Virus record (IMG/VR): IMGVR_UViG_3300025000_000080
Span: 1 to 64,000 of that record
DNA from: an uncultured virus (IMG/VR IMGVR_UViG_3300025000_000080)
Lineage: Duplodnaviria; Heunggongvirae; Uroviricota; Caudoviricetes
Strand: one strand, 5' to 3'
Length of the DNA: 64,000 nt
Below are positions 5,424 to 62,944 of the stretch, one piece after another. A program made the position numbers and the translations under genes. The notes under the pieces are model-generated. The model did not search any database and was not told where the DNA came from. It worked only from the letters and a program-made list of their open reading frames with translations. Positions within the stretch are counted from its first letter, which is position 1; every line of letters begins with the position of its first letter.

Positions 5424-6325
5424 CCCTGCGCCCCGGTGGCATCGGTCAAGTCGACCGCCGGATCAATAACGCGCATACCGCTATCGTCGAACGCCATGAC
5501 GCGCATAACGTGTGATCCAGAAACATCATTCGCATTGTGCCAGTAGCCGTAACCGAGGGGGCCCCCTACGCCCGTAAACACCGACCCATTCCAGCCGAGC
5601 GTAGTCCACCCTGTGGTGGGGGCGGTCGCGGAATTGGCTAGACTGTACATAGCGTGAGCGCCCAGGTTACCACCAGCGGGCTGCAACGCGATAGCGAGCC
5701 AGACACCCGCCGCCAATTGCCCCGCTGTGATCACGATCCCGGCTGAGTAGGAACCGGCGTGATCGGCGTACACCTTGTACTGCCCGCCGATCCATTGGAT
5801 ATAGGCCAGACAGCGCCTATCTCTATTGGATCGGAGATGAACGTGGATTCCCGCCGCGTCAAAGTTGACCGGGAGATTACTCGTAATTCGGCTGTAAAAT
5901 ACCTGACCCTGGCATATACTGGGCGTGATGAGCTTCGACCCCATCGGCGTCGTGTTCGTCCCGGTCACCCATGACGACGTTGCTGCTCCGGCCTTGACCG
6001 TCCTGGCGTTTGCAAGGCTGGTATTGTCATTACAGTTGGGTTTATCGCTCTTTGCTGTATTCTCATACGTCCACGGAGCAACGTAGGCGTCCGCCTGATG
6101 GACCAGTCCAGATGTGTCGAACAGAGTGCCGTAAACAGTGGGCGTAGCACCAGCGACAAATGGGTCAAGGTACGAAGCAAGACCCTCACAGAACGGGTTA
6201 AGAGAATCTTCGCATTGAGCCGATGATCGTTGAGCAGCAGAAATCTGCCCCGCGGCTTCCAGTGCGTCAGCTATTTCCCCGGCCAATCCGGTCGGAGGAT
6301 TAACAGTCCCGCCATCCAGTGCCAC
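5420..6325 (-). CDS. Hypothetical virion protein (beta-rich C-terminal domain)
   Basis: Translationally coupled between spike and gp25; no family recognised. Confidence 0.55.
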   Translation of the reverse strand: MALDGGTVNPPTGLAGEIADALEAAGQISAAQRSSAQCEDSLNPFCEGLASYLDPFVAGATPTVYGTLFDTSGLVHQADAYVAPWTYENTAKSDKPNCNDNTSLANARTVKAGAATSSWVTGTNTTPMGSKLITPSICQGQVFYSRITSNLPVNFDAAGIHVHLRSNRDRRCLAYIQWIGGQYKVYADHAGSYSAGIVITAGQLAAGVWLAIALQPAGGNLGAHAMYSLANSATAPTTGWTTLGWNGSVFTGVGGPLGYGYWHNANDVSGSHVMRVMAFDDSGMRVIDPAVDLTDATGAQG

Positions 6326-29773: not shown

Positions 29774-30199
29774 TTATTTTCTTGCCCGGTGTTCATCCTC
29801 GTGACACTTCGCACACAGCGCCTCAAGGTTCTCCCAGGCGTCACTCCCACCTTGTGACCGATAGATCCGATGATGAGTGTGATTCGTCCACATGTTGCAG
29901 CGCTGACAGCGAGGGAAGGCGTTTTGGAAGGCTTTTGAGTGCTGTGACCATGCCTTTTTCCAGGCGAGCCCGGCGCGTTCCGATCCATCGCCCCATGACG
30001 GATCAGGTATCCAGCGACGACAGACGAAGGAACCATCCGGCTGAGTAAGAGGGTTGTCGCAGCGATGGCCCGGGACGGAAGCGACAACATAGTCCATAGG
30101 TGTCTCGCCATGAACGCGATCCCCGAACGTCACCACAAGGTCACGTTTCTCAGGTGTAATCCACCCGAGTTTACACAGCGGACACCGCCTGCCTTTCAA
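29774..30199 (-). CDS. HNH endonuclease with N-terminal Zn finger
   Basis: CQRC..HHRIYRSQGG..NLEALCAKCH. Confidence 0.85.
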   Translation of the reverse strand: MKGRRCPLCKLGWITPEKRDLVVTFGDRVHGETPMDYVVASVPGHRCDNPLTQPDGSFVCRRWIPDPSWGDGSERAGLAWKKAWSQHSKAFQNAFPRCQRCNMWTNHTHHRIYRSQGGSDAWENLEALCAKCHEDEHRARK

Positions 30200-38889: not shown

Positions 38890-39133
38890 GACGGATCTCC
38901 TCTTTCACCTCCTGAAGCAGTCTCCTTTCCTCCATGCCCATCTGCAGGGAGTGCTCAAGGGATCTGTTCAAGAGTTCCATTGTCTTTGAGATATGCGGGG
39001 CAAACCGTGCCCAGACTGCCCGCACCCCCAGGATGATGGAGATCAGAATCACGATGTAGGGGATGTAGTTTGGACTCGAGTTTGCAAAGGTCTTGATGAC
39101 CTCACCCAAGCCCACCGTGGTTCCCGGTGTCAT
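38822..39133 (-). CDS. Holin-like membrane protein
   Basis: One TM helix (YIPYIVILISIILGV), coiled charged tail; AGGAG RBS. Confidence 0.5.
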   Translation of the reverse strand: MTPGTTVGLGEVIKTFANSSPNYIPYIVILISIILGVRAVWARFAPHISKTMELLNRSLEHSLQMGMEERRLLQEVKEEIRREKSTRKRGGRVSGPRGSDDSE

Positions 39134-39297
39134 GTCCCGTCTCCTGTCTCAACAGTATCCCAAATGCGGCGTGTTGACAAAAATCAACACGCGTCGTGAG
39201 TGCCTAACTCTATTATCCCCAGCGTGTGGGCATGCGCAAATCTGATGCCATCGGGCAGCGTTCAGGGGTCAAATGGATGAGTTTGGTAGAAGAAAAG

Positions 39298-39334
39298 AAA
39301 AAGGGGCGACTCTGCGATAGAATCGCCCCTTTTT
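39298..39334. terminator. Bidirectional intrinsic terminator after tmRNA
   Basis: AAAAAGGGGCGA...TCGCCCCTTTTT. Confidence 0.75.
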
Positions 39335-39355
39335 GTCAACTGGGCTTGCCAGAAA

Positions 39356-39711
39356 TGGTGGAGGCGCCGATGTACCGCCCATCGGGTCCGAAAGAACTCG
39401 ACTCAAGGTGTCTACGTGCGTAGTGCTCTGATCAGTTTCGCCCTAGATCTGCAGGCACACAGTCTGCCGGGCTAGCAGGTGATATTCCCTCGTTTAGTCC
39501 TGCGCTCCACGAGGGTTTTGACTGCTGGCATTATGCCCACCTGGCCCCGCAGTCTGAACCAGGCGAACAGCCCACTAAGCGGCCTGACGGTCGTAGTCGG
39601 CGTAGTAGTCGGTGTTGTTTGCGACTATGGTTTTGAGCCTGTTTAACGAGGCGACCCACCTCTGCACGCTGCCCTGATCTACCGTTCCCCCGTCGAATCT
39701 ATTTCGCCCCC
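39356..39711 (-). ncRNA. ssrA: tmRNA, tag ANNTDYYADYDRQAA*
   Basis: 5' GGGGGCGAAATAGATTCGACGGGG; 3' CGCCTCCACCA; G3-U70 pair; ATAGTC-GCA resume context; tag at 39575-39622 ends AA-stop. Confidence 0.95.
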
Positions 39712-39728
39712 GAAACTGTAAAATGGAA

Positions 39729-39800
39729 TGCCCCCAGTAGGATTTGAACCTACGACCTGCCGGTTAAAAGCCGGCTGCTCTACCACTGAGCTATGGAAGC
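39729..39800 (-). tRNA. tRNA-Lys(UUU), CCA not encoded
   Basis: Full cloverleaf; anticodon arm GCCGG-CTTTTAA-CCGGC; GGTTCAAATCC. Confidence 0.9.
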
Positions 39801-39801
39801 G

Positions 39802-39993
39802 TTAGACCTCTTCGACCTTGATGGAGTATTTCCACCGCTCCATCTTGTCGTCAGACTCGGTTGTGATCTCGAGATGGTCAAGACCTGCCTCTTTGCCTCT
39901 CACATCCGTGACATGGAGTGCCTTACCAGACTCGGGACTGGTCAACAGAATGGACTTGAGGAAGTCGCTTTCTTTATCCACGTCGATCTCCAT
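39802..39993 (-). CDS. Small hypothetical protein between tRNAs
   Basis: 63-aa ORF exactly filling the tRNA-Glu/tRNA-Lys spacer; no clear RBS. Confidence 0.45.
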   Translation of the reverse strand: MEIDVDKESDFLKSILLTSPESGKALHVTDVRGKEAGLDHLEITTESDDKMERWKYSIKVEEV

Positions 39994-39998
39994 GTGAA

Positions 39999-40069
39999 TG
40001 ATCCCACAGGGAATTGAACCCTGGCTTCCGCCGTGAAAGAGCGGTGTCTTGCCACTAGACTATGGGACC
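39999..40069 (-). tRNA. tRNA-Glu(UUC), CCA not encoded
   Basis: GGTCCCA/TGGGATC acceptor; CCGCT-CTTTCAC-GGCGG anticodon arm; GGTTCAATTCC. Confidence 0.9.
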
Positions 40070-40157
40070 AAAGGTAGCGCCGTCGTGTTCAACGGCACTG
40101 AACTTCCGGACTCTTACCGGCTGCATGTGCAGGACTCGTGTAGCCAATCGAACAGGA

Positions 40158-40676
40158 TCACATCGAGTAACTGACCTGACATCCGCGCCGACAGTACAGA
40201 CGCGGCTTGCGGTGCAACGAGGGGATCTCGATGAAGACATCGCCCTCGGAATTCGTGTTGAAACAGATCCGGTGAGTGCGGGCGAATTGGTACGCGGCAG
40301 TCTCAGCGCTCACACCGCTGGTCAACACGGTTCCGGTCATTCGCTTCTTGCTGCCGGACTTGTGCTTGAACGTGGCCAGGGTCACTGAGTCAACGTCCGA
40401 CTCGTCATCAACATCTTCCTCAACCGACAACTCCGGACGACTCACGAGAGACAGTGCCGACACTCGAGGCCAGTAAAGCTTCGGGCGCGCCTTGCCCGGT
40501 ATCTCGCTGGTATGTTGACCATCCGCCAATATCGGCTTGACGACCTTATGGACAGCGACCTTGGCGGGCAGGACTGCTAGAGCTTCACCGGTCTTTACCT
40601 TCACATGACCGGCAGCCTGACTACTCCACTGGACCATGTCACCAAGTTGATACTGCATTTCAGCCTCCATGTTCAC
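40158..40676 (-). CDS. Hypothetical protein
   Basis: ORF with GGAGG before internal ATG; YWPRVSAL motif. Confidence 0.55.
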   Translation of the reverse strand: MNMEAEMQYQLGDMVQWSSQAAGHVKVKTGEALAVLPAKVAVHKVVKPILADGQHTSEIPGKARPKLYWPRVSALSLVSRPELSVEEDVDDESDVDSVTLATFKHKSGSKKRMTGTVLTSGVSAETAAYQFARTHRICFNTNSEGDVFIEIPSLHRKPRLYCRRGCQVSYSM

Positions 40677-40682
40677 GTTAAC

Positions 40683-40755
40683 GACCGCCGCTGAGAATCA
40701 AACCCAGGCTTCCGGTTGCGCGTCCCGGCGTGCGATCCAGCCACGCTGCAGCGGT
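40683..40755 (-). ncRNA. Degenerate tRNA-like element
   Basis: ACCGCTG/CGGCGGT acceptor and CTGGG-TTTGATT-CTCAG T arm; non-canonical anticodon loop. Confidence 0.5.
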
Positions 40756-41042
40756 GAAAGATAAGGCGGCGCTGTTCAACAAGCAGCGCCATTAAGCCCG
40801 TAGTATGGGCGCCTCATGAAAGACTCCCGGTTAACGTGCCGGGTCACGCCCTACACAGATAAGGCAGTTTCAGACACCTTACATCGGCGCTCGGATCGAA
40901 CGAGCAGCTTCCCCTGTCCGTCCCCTTCGGGCTGCGCTAATACTTCAGGTTCGGGATTCCTGAAGGCATGCCCGTAAATGCCTCACGCACATGCCGAAGA
41001 CTCCAAGTATTTAACGACGTGGGAGTCTTGGATGACCGTCTC

Positions 41043-41126
41043 TGGTGGAATCGGCCAGGATCGAACTGGCACTTGCTACACCTTGGCGCGCCGTGTAGTT
41101 GCTCTATCCGATTGAGCTACGATCCC
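41043..41126 (-). ncRNA. tRNA-like RNA with Ala identity and enlarged anticodon arm
   Basis: Acceptor GGGATCG/CGATTCC + ACCA, normal D and T arms; anticodon arm CTACAC-11nt-GTGTAG. Confidence 0.8.
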
Positions 41127-41330
41127 ATAACGCGGGCCTTTTCCAGCCCGCCAGGCTAACATTCAACACAAGGAGGCCAGTCCATAGTGCCTATCTGCGG
41201 TAATTTGCAGACATGCGGCCGCACGCAGCCTTAAGCCTAGTGCATGTCTCCGTTGGTCAAGCCAACGGCACTGACGAAGGGCGGAAAGCCGAGCCAGTGA
41301 GGATTCAAATGGAGTCGGCGCCATTTTGGA

Positions 41331-41864
41331 CTAGCGGTCGTGAACTGGCGTCTTTCTCGTTTTTAAAGCATGGCACCAGACGCATAATACTTGCAGATTT
41401 TCCAGTGAATTATGTTCACGGTTATTATCGATATGATCAACGTCTAACATTGCAGAATACTTGTCGTATCCACATTGACAACATTTCTGCCCGTATTCCC
41501 GGAGTGCACGTTCCCTGTAATAACTCTTTCCGTTTTTGTATTGTCCTGGCCGTATTTCCTCAATCCCGCCAATTCTCTGAGCCAAATCCTTGCATGCTCT
41601 GGTACAAAAGTAAAAACCATGTCTTGAATTCTTTTTCTTGCCTGTTAGTTTGACGAATTGCTTTCCACATTGTGAGCATGTGAGAGTCTCGCGGCGTTGC
41701 TTCGTCTTAGCATGGCACTTTTTGCTACAAAACTTTGCACCATTAAGTATGTGCCTTGGCAAATAAAACGTTGCTCCACATTGAGCACACACCTTAGCAT
41801 ACAGTTTCCTGAAGTAGCCATCATAGCTATCAGATGTGATGTACTCTGACTCTTCTTGCGCCAC
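41331..41864 (-). CDS. HNH endonuclease with multiple Zn-finger repeats
   Basis: CxxC..FCSxxC repeats; LDVDHIDNNREHNSLENLQVLCVWCH; visibly AT-richer than flanks. Confidence 0.9.
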   Translation of the reverse strand: MAQEESEYITSDSYDGYFRKLYAKVCAQCGATFYLPRHILNGAKFCSKKCHAKTKQRRETLTCSQCGKQFVKLTGKKKNSRHGFYFCTRACKDLAQRIGGIEEIRPGQYKNGKSYYRERALREYGQKCCQCGYDKYSAMLDVDHIDNNREHNSLENLQVLCVWCHALKTRKTPVHDR

Positions 41865-41879
41865 TGAAGTACTTTTCTG

Positions 41880-41986
41880 CTTGAACCGCTATCCTCTGGT
41901 GCCAATCTCTGTCAGGCTATGTGCGCTCCACATACAAACGTCTTGTATACTGCAGGCCAGACGTTCCCCCACTGAACTACAGCCCC
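41880..41986 (-). pseudogene. Interrupted tRNA-Ala(UGC)-like gene, 5' portion
   Basis: GGGGCTGTAGTTCAGTGGGGGAACGTCTGGCC-TGC-A, 50-nt insert, CCAGAGGATAGCGGTTCAAG, then breaks off. Confidence 0.65.
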
Positions 41987-42197
41987 GTATGCTCGTCTTT
42001 CCCGGCTGCCTGGCTCTGTCTCGTCGAGCCTTCACGCCCGCATGGGCTCAGAGAGTGCGCCACCACTCAATCTGAGGTCGGTTGCTTTGCCCCGGAGGTT
42101 ACAGGGCGCCGGTTACCATACCGCCTCCCGATGACTCATGCACAGAGAGTCGGGAGCGCTACTCTGCCGGGAGTTTCACCCGGGTGCCGAAAGAATA

Positions 42198-42311
42198 AAA
42201 GACTGGGCTGACGGTACTGGTTCCACTCAGGACAGCGCTGCTTCCACTCCGGATGTACAACTCAGCAGGAACGCCACTCAACTCAGTCACTGGATCAACC
42301 GCCCAGTCTTT
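42198..42311 (-). ncRNA. Rod-shaped ncRNA candidate
   Basis: 11-bp terminal stem AAAGACTGGGC/GCCCAGTCTTT starting at the predicted TSS. Confidence 0.55.
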
Positions 42312-42316
42312 ACCAG

Positions 42317-42360
42317 ACTGTACCATGACCCTAGATATACAGTCAACAACTATTTTAATG
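42317..42360 (-). promoter_or_regulatory. Promoter of ncRNA island: ATTAAAATA-N4-TTGACT-N18-(TGG)TACAGT
   Basis: Direct reading; shared upstream box. Confidence 0.7.
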
Positions 42361-42367
42361 ATTCGTC

Positions 42368-42841
42368 TTAAAGGTTCGGTCGACCGAACCCGAGGCAGAG
42401 CGCTCTCTTGCGGAGACGACGCGCGACATGCGAAGATTTACCACCGCTGGGAGGCGCGGTGTTGCCCTCCACCGTGACGACACAGCATGAGTTGGACATC
42501 TCGACGATACCCACATGATTGGGCTTGCCATTCCCCCGGACATCCATGAAGGCGATGTATCCGGGTTCCGGGTCGTCGACCAACCACCCGCGCTGGCGAA
42601 ACGCCTCGAGGCCGATGGCGACGGAAGCAAAGCCGTTATATCCAGGGGCTTGAAGTTCAGGAAGGGGTGTGCCCGCCTCGTCAAAACACCACGAGACGAA
42701 CATGCCGCACCAGGGCTGGCCATCCCAGTTCTGCCCAGCAGTCTCCCCGTACCATTCTCCGTACTTGGTACGATTTGAGCCGTCCGGAGCCTCCTGCATT
42801 CCGATCTCAGATATAGCTATTTCCAAAGGCGTGTTGCTCAT
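42368..42841 (-). CDS. CHAP-domain endolysin
   Basis: PWCGMFVSWC, HVGIVE, VEGNT; GGAG RBS before ATG 42841. Confidence 0.9.
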   Translation of the reverse strand: MSNTPLEIAISEIGMQEAPDGSNRTKYGEWYGETAGQNWDGQPWCGMFVSWCFDEAGTPLPELQAPGYNGFASVAIGLEAFRQRGWLVDDPEPGYIAFMDVRGNGKPNHVGIVEMSNSCCVVTVEGNTAPPSGGKSSHVARRLRKRALCLGFGRPNL

Positions 42842-42902
42842 ACGATCTCCATCATTGAAGGGTATGAGCAAAGGATAGCCTGTAAGGGCGGGAATCACAA
42901 AA

Positions 42903-43184
42903 TCAGGAGAGAGCGGGAATCAGGGCAGCAGCGATCGTGTGGAGTGCGACGGACAGGCGCTCGGACAGACTCGACCCAGCCGGGGGGAAGTGCCTGCTGA
43001 AGTTGTCCAGAGAGATGGTCCCCTTGACGTCGTCGTCGGTGACGACGCGCACGATGGGGCGAACGCACTGGGCAACCTCAACGACGTGAACGGACATGGC
43101 GCCATGAATCCAGGTGGAACCAACGACGGGAAGACCGGATTGAGTCAACATGATGTTTGCTCCTAGTGTGTGATGAACATTCAA
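42903..43184 (-). CDS. Hypothetical protein
   Basis: AGGAG RBS before internal ATG; promoter at 43193-43234. Confidence 0.5.
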   Translation of the reverse strand: MNVHHTLGANIMLTQSGLPVVGSTWIHGAMSVHVVEVAQCVRPIVRVVTDDDVKGTISLDNFSRHFPPAGSSLSERLSVALHTIAAALIPALS

Positions 43185-43249
43185 TGACTCAATTTATAAT
43201 GTTCGTTAGCGTAGCTGTCAACTATTATTTTAATGTTTCTGTGTTTAGG

Positions 43250-44161
43250 TCAATAATTCCTGATCAGGACTTCGTCGACGGCTCCACGCCCGGTGCCCTT
43301 GCAGTTGACGGAACGGATGGCGCGGACGTGGGAGATCTCAAAGCCCTTGTACAACTCGAGCACGGCAGGGTGAGCGCTGTTGCATAGGAGGAAGTTGATA
43401 GAGCGCTTCGCCAGGTCTTGGCATGCTTCAGCCAGACTTGCCTGGTGATCCATTCCGAATCCATCAGCCGTGTACTGGTCGAACGAGGCGGTCACAGAGA
43501 CAGGAACGTAGGGTGGGTCGAAGAAGATGAAGTCACCGGCTCGGGCCAGAGATGTACTGGAAAGGAAGTCGGCCTCGAGTATTTCAGCACCCTGGAGCGA
43601 CGATGACGCGGCCAGGAGGACATCTCCACGCACCACATCAGCCGTCACCTTGGATGGATCGAAGCTGACGTTGAACTCTCCCTTCTGGTTCTCCCGGAAC
43701 AGCCCGTTGAAGCATATCCGGTTCAGGAAGACGAACAGGGCCGCAAGCCTTATCGGGCTGGGTGGCGTTGAGTCGGTGAACAGCCCAAACACACCTGACC
43801 GTCTCTCGCGTACTCCACGATTGAACTCTGTACGAGCTCGCAGATAGCCCTCCAGCGTTCGCTCCTGCATGAGTCGCTCGAGTTCATCGATCACATCTTG
43901 TGGTCGGCTACGGACCATTCGATAGCAGGTGACCAGCCTATGGTTCAGGTCGGACAGATAAGCAGCTCCTTTGATCCGTCTCTCCCGGACCATGGCGAAG
44001 TAGACAGCACCTCCACCGATGAATGGCTCATGGTAGGCGTTGAACCGCTTCGGGACGAGACTCAGGATCGGCTCGAGTAGTTGGTCCTTACCACCCGCCC
44101 ACCGAAGGAACGGCCGCGGCTCAAGCCCATTTTTGCCACTAACCGTAATCGCTGCTACCAT
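43250..44161 (-). CDS. dam: Dam-family DNA adenine methyltransferase
   Basis: PFLRWAGGK, EPFIGGGAV, FNGLFRENQKGEFN, FDPPY, EVLIRNY. Confidence 0.92.
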   Translation of the reverse strand: MVAAITVSGKNGLEPRPFLRWAGGKDQLLEPILSLVPKRFNAYHEPFIGGGAVYFAMVRERRIKGAAYLSDLNHRLVTCYRMVRSRPQDVIDELERLMQERTLEGYLRARTEFNRGVRERRSGVFGLFTDSTPPSPIRLAALFVFLNRICFNGLFRENQKGEFNVSFDPSKVTADVVRGDVLLAASSSLQGAEILEADFLSSTSLARAGDFIFFDPPYVPVSVTASFDQYTADGFGMDHQASLAEACQDLAKRSINFLLCNSAHPAVLELYKGFEISHVRAIRSVNCKGTGRGAVDEVLIRNY

Positions 44162-44185
44162 GCCACCAAATCCTTGGAGGAGACT

Positions 44186-44488
44186 ATGCGTCCCAGTGAA
44201 GTGAAGATTGAACTCGTGTCCGTTACCTGCCCTTGTGGCTTGTCCCTGGCCGAATGTGCCGAGCACCGCCCACTGTTTTTCGATCTGCTGAAGGAGCGCG
44301 TTCCTGAAGCACAGAAGAACCTGATCGGGCCGGCGCTGTTCAGTTTGTTCGTCGATCCGGTCAAAGCAGCCGGATACGTGCTTCAGGCGTTGAGCACGCT
44401 GGCTGTGTTCGGCGTCGTCTGGTATCTGATCGCGAACGATTATCGGCTGGGTGTGTCGGTAAGTCGCCGGGAGCGAAGTTCATCGTGA
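44186..44488 (+). CDS. Small membrane protein on the opposite strand
   Basis: GGAGGAG RBS; TM-like segment; overlaps 3' end of convergent MTase ORF. Confidence 0.5.
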   Translation: MRPSEVKIELVSVTCPCGLSLAECAEHRPLFFDLLKERVPEAQKNLIGPALFSLFVDPVKAAGYVLQALSTLAVFGVVWYLIANDYRLGVSVSRRERSSS

Positions 44489-50401: not shown

Positions 50402-51148
50402 ATGAAGTTTAAGGAAGTTCTGGCGCAACTACTTAAAGAGAAAGGGCTTTCGTCGCGTGATCTCGCCAGGTCAGTGCATATCAGCCCATCTGCACTGACG
50501 AAATATTCCCAAGGGGCAACTCCGGGACTGGATGTCGCACTCAGGATTGCCGATGCGTTGGATGTGTCACTAGACTACCTGACAACGGGAGTCGAGCCAA
50601 GGAAGAAATGCCCGGATGTTGATCATCACGCAATTATCGAGGAATTCGGTCTTGGCGAACTGGCACTACTCGCGAGTCTGGGCACGCAGGCTCCTATCTG
50701 GCAGATTACCAAGGTGCTGCTCGAGTACATTCCCCGGGCGGTCACTTTTGACGAACTACGAGCGGCACTTCCGGCGCTGAGCGAGCAGACCTTACATGCC
50801 GCACTACTGGCCATGCGGATCAAGTCCGTCGTGGTCGAGTCGAATGGTGGCTACCGCCTGGGTGACAACGTCCCCGAGTACGAAGCTCGACAGTTGGGCG
50901 ACATCGGCCAGCATGTCAAGGTGGCGCTCGATGCCTTGTTTGGCCATGTAATCCCAGCTATTGAACGCCAGGACAGCACCGGGCACCTGTTGACGATGAC
51001 AGCAGAGGTCCCCGACGATGTAGGGCGCGATCTGATTCATCGGCTTCGCGTTGAGACCCGACGTTACAGCAAGGCAGCAATGGCTAACCATGGCAACACA
51101 ACCGTGTCGGTTGTGTTAGGACTTGCAGTAGACAAGAAAAGCGACTAG
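50402..51148 (+). CDS. XRE-family HTH repressor with C-terminal wHTH-like domain
   Basis: LKEKGLSSRDLA..SALTKY..PGLDVALRIADALDVSLDYL. Confidence 0.88.
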   Translation: MKFKEVLAQLLKEKGLSSRDLARSVHISPSALTKYSQGATPGLDVALRIADALDVSLDYLTTGVEPRKKCPDVDHHAIIEEFGLGELALLASLGTQAPIWQITKVLLEYIPRAVTFDELRAALPALSEQTLHAALLAMRIKSVVVESNGGYRLGDNVPEYEARQLGDIGQHVKVALDALFGHVIPAIERQDSTGHLLTMTAEVPDDVGRDLIHRLRVETRRYSKAAMANHGNTTVSVVLGLAVDKKSD

Positions 51149-53380: not shown

Positions 53381-53737
53381 TCCAGCAAGGCACTGCTAGG
53401 AGTATGGACGAGGCGCAACCGGTCGTCAAGGACTTTTAAAATACTCTTTTACTTTTAAGCAGAGAATTATCTACCAACTGGGTGGAGATATTCGAGATAG
53501 CGAAATCTAATGGACAGCCAGATACCACTATGGCATGATCAAACGCAGTAGCCATTTCCTGCAGACGCTGCCGCTCATGCCGCTCTAGCACCAACAATAC
53601 TCGCCCGCACCCGTAGCATTTCCCGTAGCAGTGACACCTGATTCGGGACAGTAATCAGTAGCAATACGCTAACGCGACTCACTTGTAAGCCTGCGAAAGA
53701 TCGAAACAAGTGCTGTAATAGTCCAGTGTGCTTTCCC

Positions 53738-53782
53738 GATTCGTAATCAGCAGGTCGCCGGTTCGAATCCGGCCTTCGGCTT
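53738..53782 (+). other. attP core: 3' half of tRNA-Thr(CGU)
   Basis: GATTCGTAATCAGCAGGTCGCCGGTTCGAATCCGGCCTTCGGCT with no 5' half; next to integrase; CCGTAGCA repeats on both sides. Confidence 0.85.
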
Positions 53783-53871: not shown

Positions 53872-54972
53872 ATGGGCACTACCAAGCAGGGTAAGCGACT
53901 CCCACCGGGGATAATCGAGCGAGTCTACCCTACCGGACGGAAGGTCTACCGGGTCGAAGTCCGGATCAAGGGGTATGCACCCCAGGTGAAAACCTTCGAC
54001 CGCCTCCAGGACGCTAAATACTGGCAGGACACGACCAAGGCGGTCATTAGAGAAGAGAGGCTCAGACCCGATGTTGTGGCCCAGAGTCGCACCGTGGCAG
54101 ACCTGATCGACCGGTATATAGACGAGGTGCTTCCCAATAGGCCGAAGAGCGCCCGGGACACTGAGCGAGAGCTCTTCTGGTGGAAGGCGCAACTGGGAGA
54201 TGTAGCGTTGCCAGATGTCGCTGCCACCATGCTTACCCAGGCTCGAGACGATCTTGCACGAGGACTGACTCCCCGCGGTCAGGTCCGGACACCTGCCACG
54301 GTCAACCGGTACCTGGCTGCACTCAGTACCGCGTTCACCGCTGCAGTCAAGGACTGGGGATGGATGGATGCCAACCCGATGGTCAAGGTCCGAAAGCAGC
54401 GTGAACCTCGAGGCCGAACCCGGTTTTTGACCGACTCCGAGCGGGCACAGTTACTCGAGGCGGCGAAGCGTCAGAACCCGGCTATGTACCCGGTAGCAGT
54501 CCTGCTCATCTACACCGGTTGCCGGCTGTCCGAGATCATGGGCCTGCGCTGGGAACAGGTGGATATCGAGCACCGTCACCTGGTACTGCGCGAGGGGACG
54601 ACTAAGAACAGCGAACCTCGCTACGTCCCCCTAGCTGCACCTGCGCTGGGCGCAATCCGAGACTGGACGAACCATCACCGGCTACTCGGTGTGGATCTGC
54701 TCTTCCCTAGTACGATCGACACCTGTAAACCCCTGGACCTAAAGCGAGCTTGGGACGCATGCATCCGCGAGACTGGGTTACAGGGCGTCACCCGGCACAC
54801 GCTCAGACACACAGCCGCCAGCTACCTGATCATGTCCGGCGCCAGCCTCGCCGACGTGGCTGCTATTCTGGGTCACAAGTCCCTCCAGATGACCATGCGC
54901 TACTCCCATCTGTTAAACGCGCACAAGCAGGAGATCGTGGACCGCATGGCTGAGAAGTTCCCCTCCAAGTAA
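53872..54972 (+). CDS. int: Tyrosine integrase
   Basis: TGCRLSEI (R), TKN (K), HTLRH, LGHK..MTMRY. Confidence 0.95.
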   Translation: MGTTKQGKRLPPGIIERVYPTGRKVYRVEVRIKGYAPQVKTFDRLQDAKYWQDTTKAVIREERLRPDVVAQSRTVADLIDRYIDEVLPNRPKSARDTERELFWWKAQLGDVALPDVAATMLTQARDDLARGLTPRGQVRTPATVNRYLAALSTAFTAAVKDWGWMDANPMVKVRKQREPRGRTRFLTDSERAQLLEAAKRQNPAMYPVAVLLIYTGCRLSEIMGLRWEQVDIEHRHLVLREGTTKNSEPRYVPLAAPALGAIRDWTNHHRLLGVDLLFPSTIDTCKPLDLKRAWDACIRETGLQGVTRHTLRHTAASYLIMSGASLADVAAILGHKSLQMTMRYSHLLNAHKQEIVDRMAEKFPSK

Positions 54973-60926: not shown

Positions 60927-61997
60927 CTACCAGCGGGCCAAGATCTCGTTGTCCGGGTGCCATCGCTTCAAAATGGCAATGGTTTCCGGCATGTGATTCT
61001 TGAGCAGCCACAGCGCCGGGTCCGGCTCGACGGGCACGTTCATTTCCAGACACCAGCCCAGCCGCCCGAGTTGAACACCCGCCGTCAGGATATGAACCTC
61101 GTGCAGCAGTTCGGCACGATGGAGTGCTCGAGTGACGAACTGCTCCGTCAGAACGGATAATTCTCTCAGAACGGGTACATTCAGATCATGCACGTTGACC
61201 GGCTTATTGGGGACGGCGACCACCGGGGAGTCTTGGACCGGCGTCAACTCCACATACTCTGGTTCGGACTGAATTATCGACATGTCGGGCTCGAGTTCAG
61301 CCACAGCGTTGATTACGCCGGTCGACGTCGGCAGATCTTGACCATCGGGCGTGTACATGTGGGGCCAGAGGTACTGGGGCTGCTCACCGAGGAATTCGGC
61401 CACCTTCCGACGTGCGGTACGAAGGCTCCGGCTTGTGTTCATCCCGGACAGTGTTTTGATCGGGATATCGAGACACTCCGAGAGTCCTCGCCATGTCGCG
61501 ATACCGTGTTCCTTCATCGCCTGTGTCACTTTGGGATTTCCTGCCATCACTACTCTCCTTTTCTGCTTCTGCTCATCACGTTCACGCTTGAATGCCAGCC
61601 GCGTGGGTTCACACTCGGCTTTGCACTCCTCCACATCAAGAATCTTCACCTTCTTGTCGAGCTCGGCGCGCTTTTTTGCTACACCAGCCCGAAGTTTTTC
61701 GGCTACAGTTGTATCAGGCTGCTCTCGTTCTTCCTGGGGAATTTTGTCCAGAGGATCGGGCTCAGCGAACACCGGGTTTCTGACCGCCCTGGCGTCCTCA
61801 TGAGACTGCACTTCTTCAACCCATTCGCGGACGATAGAGAGGGCAGCAGCAGGCGAGTCAACCGAAGTGCTGACAGGAGAGCCATCTATCCGACAGACCC
61901 GCATATCACCCCGTCTGCGCTCGATAAAAGCCACCTTCCGCGATCCGTAGTAGTAGACTCCGTCTGACTCCACAATAAGCCTTGCCACATCTCCCAT
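60927..61997 (-). CDS. Hypothetical protein with central Cro/Ner-like HTH
   Basis: AMKEHGIATWRGLSECLDIPIKTLS..VAEFLGE..YLWP. Confidence 0.65.
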   Translation of the reverse strand: MGDVARLIVESDGVYYYGSRKVAFIERRRGDMRVCRIDGSPVSTSVDSPAAALSIVREWVEEVQSHEDARAVRNPVFAEPDPLDKIPQEEREQPDTTVAEKLRAGVAKKRAELDKKVKILDVEECKAECEPTRLAFKRERDEQKQKRRVVMAGNPKVTQAMKEHGIATWRGLSECLDIPIKTLSGMNTSRSLRTARRKVAEFLGEQPQYLWPHMYTPDGQDLPTSTGVINAVAELEPDMSIIQSEPEYVELTPVQDSPVVAVPNKPVNVHDLNVPVLRELSVLTEQFVTRALHRAELLHEVHILTAGVQLGRLGWCLEMNVPVEPDPALWLLKNHMPETIAILKRWHPDNEILARW

Positions 61998-62944
61998 TAG
62001 AACAGCCCCATCTGAACCTGGCTCTCACCATGCTCAATTGAATCCAGCACATACCGCCGCCACATCAGCGCCCACTCAAGACAATTCGCGCAGTTCTGAT
62101 GAGTGGCTATTGGGTCATGGCACAGCCGATGAGTAAACGCCTGTCCGTTGGCGATAGCTGCCCGTCGAGCTTCGAACGACCACGCCAGACTGTCGGCACT
62201 AGTCATAGAAGCCGCTGCCATCTTCAAGCCCAGTTGCTTGAAGCCGAAGCCGTGAAGACGTATGCCTTCTCGAGCAAGGGACTCCATAATCCCGGCTGCT
62301 TCATACGTTCCCTGGCGCCGGCAAACACTTCCCACACCCACCACTTTGAACTTCCTCAGATCGATTCCAGCCTTGTCGTACATCTCAAGATGTCGGAAAT
62401 ACGACCAGAGGGACCACCCTTGGATGACCGGTGCCCACGGCAGATCTGGTGCCATGGAGGAAAGTTCAAGGTACGATGCAATCGTCCGCTTCTGGTGTTC
62501 TTCCGTGGACAGACCTGTCTTCTCTCTGATTCGAGGCTCACACATCCAGTCCTGAATAGCAGCCCAGTCAAGACCGCCAATCTCCTCTGCACAGATCCGG
62601 ACTTCTTCCACGTACTGTCGAGCGGGTACCGTCCATTTACCGTGCAGATCAAGTTCCTGAAATCCACCAGAGTCCAGCGCCCAGCGAGTGACAGCACGCC
62701 GCCACGGCTTGCGACTTTTGACCGGCAAGACGCACCCGTCCCCATCTACTGCAACGGGAACCCATCGCCCCGATGCGTCGAGGCGCATATCAATACGGAT
62801 GACTCGGGAGTCAGGTGCTTGTGGGCCTTTTAATTTAGAAAGTCGCAACGGATTCAGTGTTCTCCGGCTGACGAACAAGGGAACACCAATCAGTCGTTGG
62901 TCGAACAGCCATCCCGTCTGATGAGTCCCCAGGTAAAACCTCAT
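61997..62944 (-). CDS. DpdA-like / TGT-fold deazaguanine DNA insertion protein
   Basis: WALDSGGF, QDWMCEP, PVIQGW, VGVGSVCRR, LHGFG, SADSLAWS. Confidence 0.8.
   Translation of the reverse strand: MRFYLGTHQTGWLFDQRLIGVPLFVSRRTLNPLRLSKLKGPQAPDSRVIRIDMRLDASGRWVPVAVDGDGCVLPVKSRKPWRRAVTRWALDSGGFQELDLHGKWTVPARQYVEEVRICAEEIGGLDWAAIQDWMCEPRIREKTGLSTEEHQKRTIASYLELSSMAPDLPWAPVIQGWSLWSYFRHLEMYDKAGIDLRKFKVVGVGSVCRRQGTYEAAGIMESLAREGIRLHGFGFKQLGLKMAAASMTSADSLAWSFEARRAAIANGQAFTHRLCHDPIATHQNCANCLEWALMWRRYVLDSIEHGESQVQMGLF

Follow-up and report, generated by a model that had tools for sequence, protein, structure and literature searches.

SegB of phage T4, a free-standing GIY-YIG homing endonuclease encoded in a transfer RNA (tRNA) gene cluster, is the closest described counterpart of the locus analysed here, in which an HNH endonuclease gene adjoins the remains of a tRNA-Ala(UGC) gene. 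In the passages of the SegB report used here (PMC2330249), the SegB site spans 27 bp and includes the conserved T-loop motif of tRNA genes, the enzyme drives inheritance of the tRNA region, and the segB stop codon meets a tRNA-Arg gene. Our locus lies on the minus strand of a 64,000-nt stretch (hereafter the window), positions 1 to 64,000 of IMG/VR record IMGVR_UViG_3300025000_000080, from an uncultured groundwater virus of the Caudoviricetes. An earlier note, made from the letters of the window, had described a tRNA-Ala-like gene interrupted in the anticodon loop and again in the T loop, and had offered two accounts of it: a tRNA disrupted by a homing endonuclease, or an RNA that can still fold, or be spliced, around the open reading frame (ORF). 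The first account is supported in substance by an intact HNH ORF of foreign guanine-plus-cytosine (GC) content, by tRNA-Ala neighbours in most relatives of that ORF and by tRNA homology that ends in the T loop. We consider it probable that the ORF, a member of a tRNA-Ala-linked family, encodes a free-standing HNH homing endonuclease and is situated at the broken T-loop end of a dead tRNA-Ala(UGC) gene.

As far as the SegB account in PMC2330249 extends, the two systems are alike in several respects. Both have a free-standing nuclease ORF among phage tRNA genes of the same strand; the segB stop codon meets the next tRNA gene, as does the stop codon in 8 of 14 relatives of the window HNH gene; and SegB reads a T-loop motif, which is where the window tRNA breaks. 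SegB is also passed on jointly with neighbouring tRNA genes. They differ in fold (GIY-YIG against HNH) and in breadth, since SegB cuts many tRNA genes whereas the HNH family is tied to one isotype. Moreover, cleavage and homing have been shown for SegB whereas for the window enzyme we infer them, and the tRNA genes beside segB are intact whereas that of the window is broken.

HNH genes are the most widespread coding genes in the tRNA arrays of mycobacteriophages and mycobacterial plasmids, where they are thought to reshape tRNA repertoires; the parts of these reports available to us (PMC5966550, PMC6409571) do not describe isotype linkage or tRNA stubs. Phage T5 likewise has HNH enzymes in its tRNA arrays (F-TflI, II and IV; cited in the consulted part of PMC2330249). 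The likeness of the T5 and mycobacteriophage genes to ours is one of setting, HNH genes in tRNA arrays. The window family is not close to the HNH genes of cultured phages: a tblastn search of 50,697 phage records matched only an uncultured 595-kb phage. In a non-exhaustive literature survey we found no description of an HNH family linked to a single tRNA isotype, or of the stub architecture reported below.

tRNA genes are also interrupted by introns, of group I in bacterial anticodon loops and of the bulge-helix-bulge type in archaea, some of the archaeal ones with endonuclease ORFs. Like such genes, the window has an anticodon loop interrupted next to position 37/38 and carries a nuclease ORF inside the span of the tRNA gene. 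It differs from them in that no group I or other ribozyme match was obtained, a group I intron would need more than the 50 nt of the insert, structured flanks are lacking around the ORF, there is a second interruption in the T loop, and the setting is not one of archaeal splicing.

A tRNA-Ala(UGC) relic beside an intact HNH gene

The 5' part of the tRNA-Ala(UGC)-like sequence (41951-41986, minus strand) was recognised by reading the letters, by Rfam and by alignment. It consists of the acceptor 5' strand GGGGCTG (41986-41980), a D arm of the form GTTC/AGTGGGG/GAAC, the 5' strand of the anticodon stem (TCTGG, 41961-41957) and the loop bases CCTGCA, with C at position 33 and the anticodon TGC. 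The same three lines of evidence identified its continuation (41880-41900, minus strand), which holds the last loop base, the stem strand CCAGA (41899-41895), the variable bases GGAT, the T-stem 5' strand AGCGG and the T-loop bases TTCAAG. Between the two strands of the anticodon stem stand 57 nt, 50 of them extra (41950-41901). All of these elements had been listed in the earlier note, as had C33 and the missing CCA, and every one of them was present in the letters. The likeness to tRNA stops at 41880, in the T loop and 15 nt ahead of the HNH start codon.

When a match cut at its 3' end was allowed, Rfam placed the tRNA family on 41880-41990 with 21.9 bits (gathering score 29; E 0.0092), covering model positions 1-57 of 71, with 55 nt standing in for 5 loop positions. 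A MAFFT alignment showed both pieces to be colinear with the tRNA-Ala genes of other phages. When the sequence was compared with the 97 distinct tRNAs from all fetched loci, its eight best matches were all tRNA-Ala, an isotype to which 15 of the 97 belong. The colinear alignment, the truncated Rfam match and the eight alanine matches together lead us to regard the 5' three quarters (41986-41880) as a genuine tRNA-Ala(UGC) relic.

Neither default ARAGORN nor Rfam at the gathering score called a tRNA at this locus. There is no complete cloverleaf at the family score, the T loop is broken at 41880, and in place of a 7-nt anticodon loop with U33 there are 57 nt between the stem strands and a C at position 33. 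G3 is present; when TAGTCC from the end of the HNH ORF is taken as the acceptor 3' strand, it yields G4:U if the strand slips by one base, or else G3:U if a base is bulged, a match at chance level. A tRNA would be crippled by any one of three defects: C33, a broken T loop or a slipped acceptor. The tRNA-Ala(UGC) gene beside the HNH gene is a pseudogene, with C for U33, a 50-bp insert after the anticodon and its 3' quarter missing, and it does not specify a working tRNA.

The insert in the anticodon loop (41901-41950, minus strand; letters and Rfam) has 48% GC, and its borders are ambiguous by 3 nt, GCA being present on both sides. It does stand at position 37/38, as the earlier note had it; the description of it as hairpin-rich was not borne out, the predicted fold being no better than those of shuffled sequences (z -0.64). 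The insert matched no RNA family in Rfam, had no second copy in a near-identical 137-kb viral contig, and contained no promoter-like site.

The HNH ORF (41331-41864, minus strand) encodes 177 amino acids from a GTG start codon and has no internal stops. It matched PHROG 1271 ('HNH endonuclease', E 6.1e-21), and the Pfam HNH match reached 19.8 bits, under the cut-off of 21.4. In nine aligned rows the core DHID...N...CVWCH was invariant or nearly so, with H144, N156 and H165 invariant, and three cysteine-rich modules resembling DNA-binding ones precede it. A profile search of solved structures with the HNH protein gave only a zinc-ribbon match to Rpb12 (E 0.0056). The ORF was confirmed as AT-richer than its surroundings: its GC content is 43.1%, against 57.7% in the window and 56% in both flanks, which indicates that it came from elsewhere. 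The block of low GC covers the ORF and a 15-nt AT-rich leader (41865-41879, minus strand; 33% GC) that lies between the T-loop break and the GTG codon; it starts at the break and ends about at the end of the ORF. As no HNH-less allele was found in the collections searched, mobility of the gene has to be inferred: its foreign GC points to a mobile HNH gene, and so do the neighbours beyond the far end of the ORF, which vary among its relatives.

The leader and first codons (41856-41872) resemble the D arm of the relic (41964-41980), 108 nt upstream, at 14 of 17 positions (repeat D7). This likeness may be due to chance or to a second tRNA fragment at the junction.

Rfam searches of 39000-43000 and of 41880-41990, carried to E 10, returned no family of introns or ribozymes. 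The non-coding flanks of the ORF measure 15 nt upstream and 0 nt downstream and therefore leave no room for a ribozyme beside it; on these two grounds we conclude that the HNH gene is not inside a self-splicing intron or an intein. No bulge-helix-bulge was seen by eye at the locus, the folds of the flanking non-coding stretches were not compelling (z -1.2, -0.18 and -2.08), and the setting is bacterial, a transfer-messenger RNA (tmRNA) gene being present. With introns allowed, ARAGORN merely bridged 861 nt to combine the 5' half of the relic with the neighbouring tRNA's 3' half; this call had a mismatched acceptor and was treated as an artefact.

Relatives of the HNH gene and their tRNA neighbours

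Fourteen full-length relatives of the HNH protein were counted, the near-identical 137-kb contig being excluded. Nine came from IMG/VR, one from the uncultured 595-kb phage and four from contigs of metagenome-assembled genomes (MAGs) of Chloroflexota and Armatimonadota; one of the MAG contigs, L213, holds a weak relative (28% identity). A tRNA-Ala(UGC) gene lies directly downstream of the HNH gene on the same strand at five loci (L062, L153, L155, L157 and L158), directly upstream at three (L156, L207 and L211), and on the opposite strand next to the HNH start at L159. Two further loci have tRNA-Ala(CGC) beside the gene (L064 and L212) and two have other tRNAs (L063 and L210), L213 being the one without any. 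The neighbour is thus tRNA-Ala(UGC) in 9/14 relatives, some tRNA-Ala in 11/14 and some tRNA in 13/14. If the rate of chance neighbours is set at 1 in 10, an assumed figure, the probability of finding at least nine of 14 beside one tRNA species is about 1e-6. The HNH family occupies the tRNA gene arrays of phages and shows tight linkage to tRNA-Ala, in particular to tRNA-Ala(UGC). Its linkage to one tRNA species makes the enzyme a candidate for a nuclease that reads an isotype-specific tRNA gene sequence.

The junctions between nuclease and tRNA genes are close. Where the stop codon meets the next tRNA gene, it falls inside that gene or touches it; in L156, L207 and L211 a complete tRNA-Ala(UGC) ends 8 to 40 nt ahead of the HNH start. 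Several nuclease copies are decaying: that of L064 is frameshifted, that of L158 lacks one core cysteine, and in L211 (a Chloroflexia MAG contig, 1410-2040) the HNH gene, which lies 17 nt past an intact tRNA-Ala(UGC), has an in-frame stop and no start codon, a dead copy next to a living tRNA. At L062, positions 1-130 gave a Y RNA-like (YrlA) match of 47.9 bits (gathering score 69) that is cut at the 5' end of the locus and adjoins the phage tRNA array.

Two of the relatives are flanked by tRNA stubs. In L159 (1270-2012, minus strand) a 26-nt 5' stub is followed by the antisense HNH gene, an intact tRNA-Ala(UGC) and, 50 nt further on, a 3' stub. Pairing between the acceptor strand of this last stub and the 5' stub is perfect, G3:U70 included, and the HNH ORF ends within the antisense of the 5' stub; here a resident tRNA-Ala has been split into two. 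L064 (1857-2603) runs from tRNA-Ala(GGC) through a 5' stub, the frameshifted HNH gene and an intact tRNA-Ala(CGC) to a duplicated 3' end that starts from the T loop. The L064 5' stub derives from tRNA-Ala(CGC) and is broken just after the anticodon loop, and the two stubs pair poorly with each other. These two loci show nuclease genes of this kind breaking and replacing tRNA genes, and they help to explain why phage tRNA arrays are littered with stubs and odd tRNAs.

By analogy with T4 SegB, the HNH enzyme would cut HNH-less tRNA-Ala loci of co-infecting relatives, repair of the cut locus would copy the HNH gene in, and such copying events could leave tRNA stubs behind. Hints of the target come only from the linkage to tRNA-Ala and from the stubs in L064 and L159. 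The locus of the window is in itself an ordinary one: within the tRNA region of a phage, a selfish nuclease gene adjoins a dead tRNA.

The end of the nuclease gene and competing explanations

The earlier note had taken twelve letters at the end of the ORF, ACCGCTAGTCCA (41327-41338, minus strand), which contain the HNH stop codon TAG, as the missing 3' end of the tRNA. We assessed them by reading the letters, by chance controls and by comparison of HNH protein tails. The complementarity on which the proposal was built exists, CCGC(T) being complementary to (A)GCGG of the T stem and TAGTCC to GGGCTG of the acceptor, with the register off by one; the chance controls took away its weight. A complete T stem with at least 10 pairs in total occurred at 436 of 127,972 window positions on both strands, two of them within 70 nt downstream. 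The edit distance of the piece to the expected Watson-Crick 12-mer is 3, which was equalled at 435 of 127,970 positions; with wobble pairs allowed it is 2, equalled at 2,122 of 127,970. When the pieces were joined in silico and the insert removed, ARAGORN called a tRNA-Ala, and it also accepted 5,429 of 127,940 arbitrary 3' pieces (4.2%), so that this call carries no force.

The same letters have a coding explanation. Within the piece, GAC CGC are the codons for the last two HNH residues. The protein tail carries a His five residues past the conserved KTR, followed by x-(Trp/Arg), the window reading HDR. Among 13 of the 14 relatives, this pattern recurred in five (L062, HKW; L155, HER; L064, HEW; L210, HSW; L212, HAW), and the His alone was kept in L211 (HSC) and L156 (HLQ). 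The earlier note had named membership of these letters in the HNH coding consensus as what would overturn its proposal, and that is partly what we found. Most likely, the piece consists of the HNH tail codons GAC CGC, the stop codon TAG and four flanking bases, and is not the missing tRNA end.

Set against this is the view that the HNH gene was inserted precisely in the T loop and that 41338-41327 is the slightly decayed remainder (T stem and acceptor 3' strands and discriminator A) of a gene that would still be dead. Apart from the complementarity, it draws on the position of the piece at the end of the ORF with a TCCA ending as in the aligned tRNA-Ala genes, on a low-GC block that equals ORF plus leader and closes about at the ORF end, on the recognition of the T-loop motif of tRNA genes by T4 SegB (PMC2330249, as far as consulted), and on the L064 3' stub, which likewise begins at the T loop. 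The chance level of the pairing and its shifted register speak against it, as does the alignment of GAC CGC with the His-x-(Trp/Arg) tails; furthermore, MAFFT set the piece at the 5' start of a tRNA, not at the 3' end, and in 0/14 relatives does the HNH gene lie inside a T loop with a remainder after the ORF. We therefore hold it to be rather unlikely that the piece is a true 3' relic, and equally so that the gene was split in this manner. The related proposal of an ORF looped out from the T loop is weakened by the chance level of the 12-nt piece on which it rests and by the intact tRNA-Ala(UGC) that stands wholly upstream of the HNH gene in L156, L207 and L211.

Several observations weigh against a free-standing homing endonuclease gene beside a dead tRNA. 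The surviving tRNA stems are all perfect, which is unexpected in an old pseudogene, and the GTG start lacks an evident ribosome-binding site, no Shine-Dalgarno-like run being visible by eye in the leader. The 3' piece sits precisely where the ORF ends and, like tRNA-Ala genes, finishes in TCCA, a coincidence of placement of roughly 3% (7-10 positions x 0.34%). The cleavage site is known for 0 members of the HNH family, and an HNH tree built to tie the window to the relatives with an upstream tRNA had 0/10 inner branches supported. Finally, no HNH-less allele of the phage or its relatives was found in the collections searched, and the sole close relative, the 137-kb contig, is identical at 5,629 of the 5,630 bases compared and is arranged in the same way.

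The searches for such an allele covered several sources. Protein-anchored scans of viral contigs with the CHAP gene, a 172-aa gene, the HNH gene and a 598-aa gene gave only the 137-kb contig as close, and a CHAP-gene scan of metagenome contigs added no close relative to it. Locus L072 (55% CHAP identity) has no RNA cluster, and L070 has no tRNA. Exact patterns (the first 24 nt of the tRNA and the 19-nt middle piece) occurred among viral contigs in the 137-kb contig only. Blastn of 39300-43300 against the 50,697 phage records returned tRNA-level matches only, and blastn of the L157 and L158 arrays against phages returned no HNH-less relative. Contigs from four DNA runs of one study, possibly the source of the window, had a single haplotype, that of the window, and no joint. 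Among public runs, none of RNA was listed as containing the sequence.

If the ORF is indeed a free-standing homing endonuclease gene beside a tRNA pseudogene, three routes to the break can be proposed. Insertion of the HNH gene into the T arm could have produced it; the break falls in the motif read by SegB-type enzymes and the low-GC block begins there. Alternatively, a module with tRNA-Ala followed by HNH, like that of L211, L156 or L207, may have lost about 13-19 bp, including the tRNA 3' end; the distance from T-loop position 59 to the shared codons GAA GAG is 25 nt in the window versus 38 in L211. The third route would involve an L159-like cassette that includes a spare tRNA, which in the window would be an odd tRNA at 41126-41046.

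This second tRNA (41046-41126, minus strand; Rfam tRNA, 46.1 bits) bears the alanine identity marks G3:U70 and A73 and an encoded CCA. Its 7-nt anticodon loop is replaced by 15 nt containing the palindrome GGCGCGCC, and an exact-pattern scan of viral contigs found this loop only in the window and its 137-kb relative. Default ARAGORN missed the gene; with introns allowed it was called as tRNA-Leu(CAA) with C33 and an intron of 6 nt. The gene has no clear Ala anticodon and resembles tRNA-Ala no more closely than tRNA-Lys. It is a possible partner tRNA of the HNH gene.

On the cassette account, a nuclease gene with its own tRNA-Ala landed in a resident tRNA-Ala, of which 41986-41880 would be the stub, and the spare at 41126-41046 was later damaged in its loop. 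L159 offers the model, with paired 5' and 3' stubs enclosing an antisense HNH gene and an intact tRNA-Ala(UGC); in L064 a decayed HNH gene and an intact tRNA-Ala(CGC) lie between a 5' stub and a 3' stub, and the alanine marks of the second tRNA fit as well. Yet the ORF and the second tRNA are 204 nt apart, whereas in the relatives such genes abut or overlap, and no intact tRNA-Ala abuts the window ORF. The 15-nt loop, the want of a clear Ala anticodon and the equal similarity to Lys fit the account poorly, no 3' stub that pairs with GGGGCTG was found in the window, and the window stub keeps 59 positions, far more than those of L159 or L064. We judge this origin of the window locus to be unlikely.

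For the family at large we raise a broader suggestion, tentatively and as possible rather than probable: that it is a tRNA-Ala-specific homing element which carries its own tRNA-Ala and lands in resident tRNA-Ala genes, the window being a decayed case and L159 the cleanest one. Such an element would replace the gene that it destroys and would need no intron. The sites of cutting and rejoining would then be marked by the two breaks, one following position 37 and the other in the T loop, and the tRNA at 41126-41046 would be a worn-out spare.

It is doubtful that TAG TCC AAAATGG at the end of the ORF is the decayed 5' start of a lost downstream tRNA; the MAFFT placement and the relatives whose stop codon falls in the next tRNA would suit this idea, but no acceptor strand is present and Rfam reported no match at this place.

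A living RNA, whose transcript folds or splices to a working tRNA-Ala or serves as a tRNA-like processing signal for the HNH message, is highly improbable: in its favour, the surviving stems are perfect, and tRNA processing beside a nuclease ORF is discussed for segB in the part of PMC2330249 seen, but the three crippling defects, the lack of intron and ribozyme families, of flank room and of a bulge-helix-bulge, an insert that folds no better than shuffles and the bacterial setting all speak against this second account of the earlier note.

The phage and its RNA-gene region

The virus record from which the window was taken comprises 73,187 bases and is about 54% complete. Its gene content includes contractile-tail genes, a portal gene, an integrase and a CI-like repressor. 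The studied locus belongs to an RNA-gene region on the minus strand, between 42367 and 39356, that also holds tmRNA (39356-39711, minus strand; 132 bits), tRNA-Lys(UUU) (39729-39800, minus strand) and tRNA-Glu(UUC) (39998-40070, minus strand). The latter two tRNA species are often attacked by host anticodon nucleases. Gene finders miss or miscall stubs and odd tRNAs such as those described above, which should not be annotated as introns or split tRNAs.

Two further tRNA-like sequences were noted in this region. The stretch 40683-40780 (minus strand) is paralogous, in rearranged form, to tRNA-Glu(UUC) together with the flank upstream of it (repeats D2, D3 and D6 versus 39998-40093, 71-82% identity); a cloverleaf whose acceptor stem has 7 bp can be drawn from it, and Rfam gave only a weak mascRNA-like match (E 0.6). 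At 40889-40905 (minus strand) there is an orphan T arm, with a 5-bp stem and the loop TTCGATC, that has no surrounding tRNA and is probably another tRNA stub.

Elsewhere in the window, a weak tRNA-Thr(CGU)-like sequence (53712-53781, plus strand) was called by ARAGORN and reached 22 bits in the relative, under the Rfam cut-off. A tyrosine integrase gene (53872-54972, plus strand) lies directly 3' of it, with the CI-like repressor gene (50402-51148, plus strand) nearby. The tRNA-Thr(CGU)-like sequence is probably an attachment site, and the phage therefore looks temperate. The window also encodes a DpdA-like protein of 7-deazapurine DNA modification (61997-62944, minus strand; E 1e-68), a D12-class adenine methyltransferase (43250-44266, minus strand) and a second HNH protein (29774-30199, minus strand), unrelated to the one studied here.

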